Part shown: piece after piece, positions 60,624-64,000 of the stretch
How the letters are laid out: each line of letters begins with the position of its first letter
How positions within the stretch are numbered: position 1 is the stretch's first letter
Source: Escherichia coli
GTDB taxonomy: Bacteria > Pseudomonadota > Gammaproteobacteria > Enterobacterales > Enterobacteriaceae
Length of the DNA stretch: 64,000 nt
NCBI RefSeq assembly: GCF_041248615.1
Contig: NZ_CP158426.1
Direction: 5' to 3' (one strand)
The notes under the pieces: generated by a model
Seen by the model: the letters and a program-made list of their open reading frames with translations, nothing else
Databases searched by the model: none
Told to the model about the DNA's origin: nothing
Made by a program: the position numbers and the translations under genes

Positions 60624-60896
60624 ATGGTCACAGTTAACCTTCATTGTCCCCGTTGCCAGTCCGTTCAGGTTTACCGTCACGGGCAGAACCCCAAAAGACA
60701 TGATCGATTCCGCGGCCGTGACTGTCACCGGGTATTTCAGCTCAGTTACTGTTACGAGCCCCGTAAACCAGGAGTTAAAGACCAAATCGCTGAAATGGCT
60801 TTCAACGGTGCCGGGGTTCGCTATACTGCCCTTACGCTGAAAATCGGCATTAATACAGTCATCCGAACTTTAAAAAACTCTCGCCACGAAAAATAA
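60624..60896 (+). CDS. insA: IS1-family InsA-like protein (divergent)
   Basis: 90-aa product MVTVNLHCPRCQSVQVYRHGQNPKRHDRFRGRDCHRVFQLSYCYEPRKPGVKDQIAEMAFNGAGVRYTALTLKIGINTVIRTLKNSRHEK; aligns with IS1 InsA (CPxC...MAxNGxGxRxTA...NTxxRxLKNS) but first Cys of the second zinc pair is Gly. Confidence 0.75.
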   Translation: MVTVNLHCPRCQSVQVYRHGQNPKRHDRFRGRDCHRVFQLSYCYEPRKPGVKDQIAEMAFNGAGVRYTALTLKIGINTVIRTLKNSRHEK

Positions 60897-60914
60897 CGTC
60901 ATCCCCGGTCGCTC

Positions 60915-61330
60915 ATGCTGATGTGGCACTCATCTGCGAACTTAGTCAGCAATGGAGCTTTGTCGGCAGTAAAGCGCGACAGCACTGGCTCTGGTACGTG
61001 TACAACACGAAAACTGGTGGTGTTCTGGCCTACACTTTTGGCCCCCGGACTGATGAAACCTGTCGTGAACTGCTGGCGCTGCTTACCCTTTTACCATCGG
61101 CATGTTGACCACTGACGAATGGGGTAGTTACGCTAGAGAGTTACCAAAGGAGAAGCATCTGACTGGTAAGATTTTTACTCAGCACATTGAGCGTAACAAT
61201 CTGACCCTGAGAACCCGAATCAAACGTCTGGCCCGCAGAACCATCTGTTTCTCGCGTTCTGTAGAACTTCATGAAAAAGTCATCGGTGCTTTTATCGAAA
61301 ATATATGTTCTACTAATTGGAGTCATCACC
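60915..61330 (+). pseudogene. insB: IS1-family insB-like transposase gene, frameshifted and lacking in-element stop
   Basis: Two overlapping frames (60923..61108 and 61102..61416) each match part of IS1 InsB (WxYVxxKxRQxWL...; ...KxxTQxIERxNLxLRxxxxRLxRxxxxFSxSVELHxKVIG); second frame reads through the right IR into flanking DNA. Confidence 0.7.
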
Positions 61331-61385: not shown

Positions 61386-61709
61386 TTACCTCATTCTGCT
61401 CTTTTTTCTCAAATGACATATATTATATTTTACATCATATTCATAGGCATATGACATTCCCCCGCCCCCCATTATGTCATTGTGGGTTGATGTTGGGCTT
61501 TCATAAAAAAATACATCTTTTTTTGAACTAGCATTAATTATATTTACTTTATATATTAAAATATTTTCTCCATCTGGAAATATTTTAGCCACACAATATA
61601 AAGCAGCTAAATCCGAATTACTTAAAAATATATTGTCATCACTCATAACTCCAGCCATTAAATGACTGGAGACTAAAGCAAGGAAATAACAACATTGTAT
61701 TACCTTCAT
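61386..61709 (-). CDS. candidate Rhs immunity protein (orphaned by IS5 insertion)
   Basis: 107-aa ORF from ATG at 61707-61709 (MKVIQCCYFLALVSSHLMAGVMSDDNIFLS...), SD AGGGAG 8 nt upstream; start lies 1 nt after the reconstructed Rhs toxin stop; very AT-rich; track ORF start at 61769 is inside IS5 and rejected. Confidence 0.5.
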   Translation of the reverse strand: MKVIQCCYFLALVSSHLMAGVMSDDNIFLSNSDLAALYCVAKIFPDGENILIYKVNIINASSKKDVFFYESPTSTHNDIMGGGGMSYAYEYDVKYNICHLRKKSRMR

Positions 61710-61710
61710 T

Positions 61711-61754
61711 TTAATTACTCCCTTGCCTGATAATTGTAACTCCATTCCCTTTAG
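61711..61754 (-). other. displaced 3' end of Rhs toxin reading frame (last 13 codons plus stop), separated from the rest of the gene by IS5
   Basis: Joining 62955 to 61754 across IS5 (one TTAG copy removed) continues the Rhs frame as ...NPKAKGNGVTIIRQGSN-stop, with TAA at 61711-61713. Confidence 0.6.
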
Positions 61755-62950
<1,196 letters not shown>

Positions 62951-64000
62951 TTAGCTTTGGGATTATATTTTAGATAGGTGTTATTTGGTGTTCCCAAGTA
63001 ACTACTGTATTCTTTTTTTCCCATTCCATTCATATAAGAATTCGTTAAATCTTTGCTTGAAAAATTTAGACTATCATAAACATCATTTTCTTTTGTTACT
63101 TTATTGCCTTTATCGTCAGAGTAAAAACCGTGAGTGTGATAATCGCCTACTCTCTCTGAACCTTCAGGGCATTTTATATTTCGCAAGTCTACACTATCAT
63201 TATCATTTGAACTTATCGGATTCATGGGGAAATATTCACCTTGCTTCTTACATATTAGCCCACCATATTCTTTATTCTCGTTAATTGATTCTCCATTACA
63301 CATTGCCAATGCAAATATTCCAATATCATCTATATTTTTTGATTTAAATTCATATAATCCTAATGGATCTATATTTGAGATCGGATTCAACGGATACTGA
63401 TAAAAATTCCATCCCCCCTTCAGCCCAATCGGATCCTGAGTGATATACCGCCCCTGCAGCGGGTCATAATAGCGGTGGCGGTTGTAATAGAGGCCGGACT
63501 CCTCATCATACTGCTGACCCGGCAGGCGGATGAGCTGCTGCAGCTGGTGCGGGTTCTCTTCATTCAGCAGGTTGCCCCATTCATCGTATTCTGCGCACCA
63601 TTCTGTTGCCCCTTCCGTGCTGACAAGCGCCAGCGGCAGGCCGCGATGGTCGCAGTGGTACAGGTGGATTTTTCGCGCCGGCGTGTACACCGGGTCCATC
63701 TGGTTTTGTATCTGCTCCACCGTCAGGCCGCACGATGCCAGCCAGCGGCGGCTTTCCTCACTCACCCGGTCAGCCAGGATTTCACTTTCCAGCCGGTCGA
63801 GCATCTGCACCAGCACCGGCGGGAACACCACACTGCCACCGTCTTCACCGCCGGACTGCTGAAGCGCATCCGCCAGGCTGCGGCGCTGCGTTTTCGCCAG
63901 CTCACCGGTGGCAGTTTCAACTCTGATGAGTGGCGTGAAGCTCCCCGGCTGATAAACCGTCTGGATGCGGGTTCTGTCGTTCTGTATTGTGGTCAGCCGG

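Follow-up and report, generated by a model that had tools for sequence, protein, structure and literature searches.

A predicted export signal on dsORF-f3, candidate immunity protein of a DUF4329-type Rhs toxin of Escherichia coli

T6SS immunity proteins of the Tsi/Tai/Tgi/Tli type are small, Sec-exported and encoded beside the effector, which they neutralise in the periplasm. Their effectors are amidases, glycoside hydrolases and lipases with demonstrated envelope targets, whereas the partner of dsORF-f3, the protein described here, is a JAMM-fold domain. As exported immunity to envelope-acting T6SS effectors is well known, an exported Rhs immunity protein would not be of a new kind; an example of the rule of periplasmic immunity in use is given in PMC10469887. 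Zhang et al. 2012 (PMC3482391) stated that most immunity proteins are cytoplasmic, and the first-pass annotation of the present DNA was in agreement with this.

DUF4329-type Rhs tips are among the commonest in E. coli and are found also in Salmonella. The domain DUF4329 is the Tox-JAB-2 of Zhang et al. 2012 (PMC3482391), who conjectured a nuclease activity for it by analogy with RadC. They listed Imm-NTF2-2 (PF15631) as its immunity family, and an export signal for this family is not mentioned there. In published in-silico work the DUF4329 tips have repeatedly been labelled 'RNase', in one case with a citation of Ma et al. 2017, and no assay of its own is included in that work. A Salmonella survey reported 'no signal peptide' for some DUF4329 partners. 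[quoted passage not shown]

The window, i.e. the whole analysed stretch of 64,000 nucleotides of E. coli DNA (contig NZ_CP158426.1), includes on its minus strand a gene of 107 codons and a stop at 61386–61709, identified from its ORF and translation and from RefSeq. The first-pass annotation had pointed out this ORF as a candidate immunity gene with a signal-like hydrophobic N-terminus, had preferred 61709 as its native start and had regarded the start at 61769 in the ORF track as an artefact; all these points were borne out. The 481-base stretch used as a query was identical to E. coli isolate NRZ14408, and the RefSeq annotation of this identical locus gives the same coordinates and the same ATG at 61709 for WP_001521836.1, 'RHS element protein dsORF-f3', candidate immunity gene of an RhsF-type toxin tip. 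The translation starts with MKVIQCCYFLALVSSHLMAG and ends with KKSRMR, which corresponds to LMR or LMK at the ends of the orthologs. Read from the sequence, a Shine-Dalgarno-like GGGAG (61718–61722, minus strand) lies within the last toxin codons, 8 nt 5' of the ATG, and the toxin stop TAA (61713–61711) is separated from the ATG by a gap of 1 nt. The arrangement is the same in locus L001, which is without IS5 and in which a 1390-aa Rhs core CDS stops one base ahead of the dsORF-f3 ATG. dsORF-f3 is translationally coupled to the toxin gene, and the orthologs all show this coupling of the ATG with the toxin stop. The start at 61769, on the other hand, is a TTG located in the terminal repeat of the IS5/ISKpn26 copy and is therefore artefactual. 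The gene order of the region is rpmE, Rhs element, dsORF-f3, IS1H remnant, yiiX, metJ and metBL. The gene occupies the position of the immunity gene of the toxin, and this synteny was kept in every relative examined.

The toxin tip matched Pfam DUF4329 above the cut-off (E 3.6e-16). It has the JAMM metallopeptidase (JAB/MPN) fold with an intact E...HxH...SxxD motif, and the E (of EYGG), the H-T-H and the S-x-x-D were conserved over 26 diverse DUF4329 toxins. The PDB sequence search with the toxin produced noise only. Roughly 900 DUF4329 toxins were detected in the course of the analysis.

The toxin gene is interrupted in the window. The C-terminal part of the conserved Rhs core (63356–64000, minus strand; NCBIfam RHS_core, TIGR03696, and translation) runs off the window and ends in the PxxxxDPxGL cleavage motif. 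Just past ...DPLGL follow the N-terminal three quarters of the DUF4329/Tox-JAB-2 domain (62951–63355, minus strand), including the E...HTH...SxxD residues. The 3' coding end of the toxin is then separated from these by an IS5-like element of the ISKpn26 family (61755–62950, plus strand; 1196 bp), which was delimited by its terminal repeats, its transposase ORF (61823–62803), the RefSeq annotation and a CTAA target duplication flanking it at 61751–61754 and 62951–62954. On the near side of the element, the 3' remnant of the toxin tip (61711–61754, minus strand) comprises the last 14–15 codons with the stop and one CTAA copy (61751–61754). The reconstructed toxin tail, ...KYNPKAKGNGVTIIRQGSN and the stop, is identical to that of the intact L001 gene. 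In the matching genome NRZ14408, the same rhs gene is also interrupted by IS1397 farther upstream. With its 3' end cut off by IS5, and the matching gene split by IS1397 as well, the toxin gene has to be regarded as a dead pseudogene; in practice, what the window keeps is dsORF-f3 as an orphan immunity gene. On its other side lies a frameshifted IS1 remnant of the IS1H type (60624–61330, plus strand; RefSeq), the IS1-like terminal sequence of which ends near 61330; this remnant follows dsORF-f3 in every listed E. coli genome with the locus.

The disruption of the toxin gene could also mean that dsORF-f3 is not an immunity gene, or that it is a non-functional remnant of an Rhs element decayed between IS5 and IS1. 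The promoter/terminator scan found no promoter-like site on the gene's strand between IS5 and the ATG, no family model names the protein, and many of the database copies are truncated, as was seen in a word-indexed search, which returned E. coli copies only. The ORF is nevertheless intact and identical to the form present beside intact toxins, and the sequence was found in 2235 of the 5426 complete E. coli genomes (41%). Furthermore, the pairing of the toxin with its downstream gene is conserved from Enterobacteriaceae to Acidovorax and, by profile search, to Acidobacteriota and Planctomycetota. With these observations, a remnant or a gene of another function has to be considered extremely doubtful.

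The N-terminus of dsORF-f3, MKVIQCCYFLALVSSHLMA and then G, matches a leader of the Sec/signal-peptidase-I type, at the weak end of the range. The predicted Sec-type signal peptide (61650–61709, minus strand; residues 1–19/20) is composed of MK, VIQCCYFLALVSS and HLMA, with cleavage expected before the G, and was delimited from the n-h-c features, the ortholog leaders and the AlphaFold2 (AF2) model. The n-region is M-K with the single lysine K2, and no acidic residue is present ahead of D24; D24 and D25 come after the predicted cleavage site. The h-region has the uncharged core VIQCCYFLALVS, in which Q, Y and two C occur; its hydrophobicity is moderate, with a mean Kyte-Doolittle value of 2.0–2.1 (2.11 for a window of 10 residues). 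The c-region reads S-S-H-L-M-A and then G, in which L-M-A (residues 17–19) provides the L of position -3 and the A of position -1. Neither the lipobox [LVI][ASTVI][GAS]C nor a twin-arginine motif was found in the leader: the residues ahead of C6 and C7 are V-I-Q, and RR is absent. Of classic signal peptides, MalE has a hydropathy of 1.99, LT-B 2.17 and most others 2.4–3.1, which places the dsORF-f3 core at the low end of this panel.

A crude rule was formulated from a K/R n-region, an uncharged window of 10–12 residues with mean Kyte-Doolittle ≥ 2.11, and a small -3/-1 site. The share passing it was 0.9% among residue shuffles of dsORF-f3 and 0.7% among random ORFs of the local composition (31% G+C), figures that are indicative only, since the threshold was chosen post hoc as dsORF-f3's own value. 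With the same reservation, the rule flagged five of the window's other 43 RefSeq CDSs (YijD, YijF, YijE, 5'-nucleotidase and YiiX). All five are membrane or exported proteins, some by their annotation (membrane protein, transporter) and YijF, the 5'-nucleotidase and YiiX as known proteins of this kind. None of the remaining 38 CDSs, most of them cytoplasmic by annotation, was flagged, and BtuB was among those missed by the rule.

The strongest support for the putative leader comes from comparison with relatives. HMMER, run exhaustively against 1.84 billion representatives, showed a small family with a handful of true relatives, and further ones were obtained by toxin-guided look-ups and by scanning one genome per species. 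In the profile set of enteric and Acidovorax sequences, an n-h-c leader was present in 11 of the 12 distinct relatives: those of E. coli, Enterobacter, Salmonella, Citrobacter, Superficieibacter, Buttiauxella, Rahnella and Acidovorax, a Hafnia-type orphan and two metagenomic relatives. The leaders share a plan of MK/MR, 10–15 hydrophobic residues and a small-x-small site (LMA/E, SYA/T, AFG/G, ATG/E, TMS/Q). The n-regions of the orthologs are MK, MR or MKIRILR, and the hydropathy of their h-regions is 2.4–3.8. The individual leaders are MKTLFIYLHLFLFFMPFDLMA and then E in Enterobacter, MKIRILRFLLMFFIMLMGSYA and then T in P0067, MSKNCYLMLLLLLSNESLSG and then V in P0069, MKFLIFIFMVCTVCNAFG and then G in Salmonella, MKFFVFIFMLCTICSAFG and then E in Citrobacter, MRNVLFFIVLLTVYEATG and then E in the Hafnia-type relative, MKYFIFTFIFLIPLRC and then M in Superficieibacter, MTFLFVVLFIIIQLKC and then F in Buttiauxella, and MKFFIMLFFLVISGPTMS and then Q in Acidovorax, while that of Rahnella, MIFLNNFLTTVVLASC, is a lipobox (LASC). 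The Enterobacter protein shares the cleavage site LMA with dsORF-f3; the other orthologs have SYA, AFG, ATG or TMS.

The mature domains of the relatives align with that of the window protein at 27–49% identity, with L29, G81–G83 and Y89 invariant, but the leaders are unalignable. It is because these leaders keep the n-h-c pattern though unalignable that the N-terminus is read as an export signal: this is how signal peptides evolve, and it would be unexpected of an accidental hydrophobic stretch. On this comparative ground, export of dsORF-f3 is likely. The searchable literature included no report of its export or cleavage. The sole leaderless copy among the 12, L005 of S. salamae, has a frameshift in a T-run and belongs to a degenerate orphan module, and the intact leader of its branch is visible in P0079 and L019. 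The starts of the relatives are located at -1 to +44 nt from the stop of the DUF4329 toxin, which is always of the same subfamily. An argument from a disulfide between the two cysteines of the mature domain was rejected, as these are not conserved, the first being absent in the Salmonella and Hafnia-type relatives.

The predicted mature domain (61389–61649, minus strand; about 87 aa) consists of a short strand, a helix and a four-stranded antiparallel sheet with the invariant GGG loop. In the AF2 model, built on an alignment of eight sequences, residues 5–17 form a low-confidence helix, the mean pLDDT of residues 1–20 being about 52, with residues 16–20 below 50. The domain itself was modelled as a short strand, a helix at 31–43 and four strands, with block-mean pLDDT values of 74–93 outside the GGGG loop and 84–93 in the best parts. 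As modelled, the mature domain is cystatin-like, with one helix and four strands. Foldseek of the PDB with this model gave no significant match, and the fold class alone is therefore claimed. The likeness to PepSY, the M4/M36 propeptide inhibitors and the cystatins is one of fold class only, with no sequence similarity, and the fold match to Tgi2 (PDB 4kt3 chain B) is generic. No family model of Pfam or NCBIfam matched dsORF-f3 or its relatives, a gap that appears to be unrecorded in the searchable literature. This uncatalogued immunity family hereby gains a defined domain, a conserved GGG(G) loop motif and a predicted compartment.

The protein might alternatively be cytoplasmic, its hydrophobic N-terminus being a by-product of AT-rich DNA or a part of the fold, or its translation starting at Met22. 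The low G+C of the gene (30%) favours F, I, L and Y, the hydrophobicity of the leader is modest, and the DUF4329 literature assumes a nucleic-acid target. In addition, one third of the related genes, from other phyla, are leaderless and start about where Met22 aligns. The internal start itself (MSDDNIFL...) was rejected: a GGAG is present just 5' of the Met22 codon, but merely 2 nt from its ATG, and the Met is not conserved. The orthologs of Salmonella, Citrobacter and Acidovorax are without Met22 and yet have a leader, of different sequence in each case, which is a signature of selection for hydrophobicity and not of drift. Such an N-terminus would arise by chance in less than 1% of cases by the indicative estimates above, the AF2 model leaves residues 1–20 unpacked against the domain, and it is the ATG at 61709 that is coupled to the toxin stop, an arrangement shared by all orthologs. 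A cytoplasmic dsORF-f3 is thus clearly improbable.

The hydrophobic segment could also remain uncleaved as a signal-anchor and hold the immunity domain at the inner membrane, on its periplasmic side; anchoring in the membrane is known from immunity proteins against toxins that act on the envelope (PMC3482391; Salmonella survey). The positions of K2 before and D24–D25 after the helix fit an N-in, C-out topology, and the L-M-A site is acceptable but suboptimal at -3/-1. The best 19-residue window of dsORF-f3 has a mean Kyte-Doolittle value of 1.67, just above the classical transmembrane threshold of 1.6. Across all orthologs, however, the uncharged hydrophobic stretches are 9–16 residues long, which is shorter than typical membrane anchors, and each is followed within 3–6 residues by a small-x-small motif. 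Furthermore, the change to a lipobox in the Rahnella relative argues that the leader is processed, anchoring being achieved by lipidation where it is wanted. Permanent anchoring by the leader of dsORF-f3 was therefore considered rather unlikely, and removal of a Sec signal peptide the better description of the predicted leader.

Among the described systems, YhhH, a member of Imm-NTF2-2, is one of the closest to dsORF-f3. Like dsORF-f3 it lies directly 3' of a DUF4329/Tox-JAB-2 Rhs tip in E. coli, in this case that of RhsB, the other common tip, which was present in 2987 of the 5426 complete genomes (55%) and is followed by YhhH. It is also small (about 120 aa) and by eye is built likewise: leader and helix come first, then the strands and their GG loop. 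The YhhH N-terminus, MVICKKILFRNCVIVSLFVFTYNTWA and then Q, is signal-like too, and the same was seen in the Salmonella Imm-NTF2-2 protein. By sequence the two were not connected: none of eight members of the dsORF-f3 family matched the PF15631 profile up to E 10, the precomputed Pfam assignments were empty for all dsORF-f3 homologs, and hhalign of the family against a YhhH pair gave a probability of 0.1–0.2%, with no homology detected. The conserved W of Imm-NTF2-2 is absent from dsORF-f3, and the partner toxins of the two proteins are only about 37% identical. Although its partner toxin is of the same type and its fold class seems similar, dsORF-f3 thus falls outside Imm-NTF2-2 by sequence, a point that appears to be unrecorded in the searchable literature. 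Imm65, compared here by its published description, resembles dsORF-f3 in being an exported partner of a JAB-fold toxin borne by RHS repeats (PMC3482391). It differs in its toxin clade and phylum and in being a lipoprotein, dsORF-f3 having no lipobox.

To survey how general exported partners are, one genome per species was scanned by pattern; 31 DUF4329 loci were detected in this way, and an A. baumannii locus was added. The gene scored was the first same-strand gene 3' of the toxin, which was available in 30 loci. It carried an export-type leader in 20 of these and none in nine, one being ambiguous. The leaders were of the lipobox type in Rahnella, Polyangia and Sorangium. Leaderless genes were found in A. 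baumannii, two Burkholderia, Duganella and Zophobihabitans, and in MAGs of Alphaproteobacteria, Methylumidiphilus, Myxococcota, Terriglobia and Planctomycetota. A missed start was ruled out for the nine leaderless genes, as an in-frame stop or toxin coding sequence was located directly upstream. Export signals are thus the majority state for Tox-JAB-2 partners, K-12 YhhH included, which also appears to be unrecorded in the searchable literature.

The distribution of the leaders followed none of the features compared with it. Inside tight toxin clades their presence flips (L024 and L030 with, L026, L027 and L029 without a leader), and some leaderless genes are partners of toxins nearly identical to those with leader-bearing partners, so that export is not obligatory for neutralising this type of toxin. 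Leader presence did not track whether the carrier was Rhs-borne or short and non-Rhs, nor did it track the cysteine content of the toxin. With an iterated profile built within the small survey set, 22 of the partners could be linked to the dsORF-f3 family, some of them leaderless or with tandem domains. There was only a weak indication of homology between dsORF-f3 and the leaderless Burkholderia/Acinetobacter group (hhalign E 6e-4 to 0.015, probability 3–29%).

The survey bears on the suggestion of the first-pass annotation that an exported immunity protein would place the action of the toxin in the periplasm or envelope. The suggestion gains from the strong enrichment of exported partners (20 of 30 loci), the leader of YhhH and the lipoprotein nature of Imm65, by which envelope action is favoured, and it is weakened by the leaderless third (nine of 30) and by the common 'RNase' label. 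Action of the DUF4329 toxin in the periplasm or envelope is thus plausible, and the step from export to toxin site is supported in part.

Taken together, the sequence comparisons suggest with moderate confidence that dsORF-f3 is a Sec-exported, probably cleaved periplasmic immunity protein of the DUF4329 tip, the toxin being most likely envelope-acting. Its precursor would carry an N-terminal Sec signal peptide of some 19 residues (MK, VIQCCYFLALVSS, HLMA, then G), which signal peptidase I would probably cut off after A19 once the protein had been translocated over the inner membrane. The 87-residue cystatin-like domain with its GGGG loop would then reside in the periplasm, where it may bind and block the toxin delivered from a neighbouring Rhs-positive E. 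coli. The toxin would thus be met, and most likely be active, in the cell envelope.

A wider version, in which export is general to DUF4329 immunity and the toxins are not RNases but JAMM (iso)peptidases acting on an envelope substrate, is put forward tentatively, and we would sooner expect it to fail than to hold. Candidate substrates, which are speculation, are the stem-peptide or cross-link bonds of peptidoglycan and the isopeptide link between Lpp and peptidoglycan. Equally speculatively, the fold of the toxin and periplasmic immunity would be reconciled if the toxin were a JAMM isopeptidase with peptidoglycan or the Lpp–peptidoglycan link as its target. The leaderless third could be explained by a substrate chemistry that is also cytoplasmic (peptidoglycan precursors) or by lineage-specific delivery. 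If envelope action is true, a JAMM metallopeptidase would be added to the few chemistries of T6SS effectors that target the envelope. The conserved export signal on the immunity proteins is a cheap and testable pointer to the site of the toxin, namely to the periplasm and a peptidase-type envelope action, and it opens the activity of a very common family of toxins to direct testing.

The names used for these loci overlap in part. In the Hill-laboratory papers in which the dsORFs were named, candidate signal peptides were reportedly noted on some dsORFs, and this was not used as evidence here. The RNA-binding 'RhsFI' of EHEC (ECs0604/z0704; Zammit et al. 2025), for which a signal peptide is not mentioned, was considered and rejected as a counterpart: it comes from another locus (S-loop 44), its toxin is another one, nuclease-like, and it shares only its name with the dsORF-f3 locus, which is Hill's RhsF element. 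In the EHEC naming, the locus studied here is 'RhsB' z5488.

The Rhs toxin gene of the window is dead, whereas the gene 3' of it, dsORF-f3, encoding the candidate exported immunity protein, is intact. The toxin gene is interrupted by the IS5-family element IS5/ISKpn26 (61755-62950), which is flanked by a CTAA target duplication and inserted 15 codons ahead of the toxin stop, leaving toxin remnants on either side at 61711-61754 and 62951-63355. The corresponding rhs gene of the matching genome, L002, is additionally split by IS1397.

The Rhs element of the window, which includes dsORF-f3, is Hill's RhsF. In the EHEC papers, the same locus is called 'RhsB' (z5488), and the name 'RhsF/RhsFI' is used there for another island (PMC7216683, PMC7618764). 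Because of these clashing locus names, annotations and papers are open to mix-up.

Signal-peptide-like leaders were also present in two Imm-NTF2-2 proteins. YhhH, which belongs to this Pfam family and follows the DUF4329 toxin tip of the K-12-type RhsB in the E. coli RhsB/YhhH locus (L010 740-1123), has the N-terminus MVICKKILFRNCVIVSLFVFTYNTWA|Q; as annotated, its gene begins 29 nt inside the toxin gene. Such a leader is likewise carried by an Imm-NTF2-2 protein from Salmonella (L016 2655-3011).

The dsORF-f3 family also has a divergent Salmonella branch (L005 3396-3687, protein P0079, and L019 3417), whose leader reads MKY(V/F)I..FIFLIPLRC. A frameshift in a T-run has destroyed this leader in S. 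salamae (L005). In P0079, where the leader is intact, toxin and immunity protein are read as a single fused ORF, the Met of the immunity protein lying in the toxin frame. The DUF4329 partners of Acidobacteriota, Planctomycetota and Myxococcota, encoded by downstream genes of 170-194 aa (L024, L026, L027, L029, L030 and L031), consist of the dsORF-f3-type helix-plus-sheet module duplicated in tandem; among close copies, some carry the N-terminal leader and others lack it.

The metagenomic Rhs locus L009 includes an orphan dsORF-f3-like gene. In its main Rhs tip (49-1650), the motif CGVHDTCYG recalls phospholipase A2, and the neighbouring ankyrin-repeat protein (1665-2381), with a lipobox at its N-terminus (MSIKSTMLLSIFLIPSFSGC), is a candidate for a further exported immunity protein. 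dsORF-f3 was also found on a 2.2-kb contig labelled as a Lachnospiraceae MAG (L017, SFGN01000258.1), together with an Rhs tip 99% identical to that of E. coli; here E. coli DNA was probably assigned to a Firmicutes MAG by a binning error.

Elsewhere in the window, WP_000105523 (54528-55658, + strand), a 'hypothetical protein' of 376 aa, has several CxxC pairs close to its N-terminus. Its gene is convergent with metL, overlapping the metL 3' end by 37 nt, and the same placement between metL and the 5'-nucleotidase gene was observed in the second E. coli genome examined (L001).
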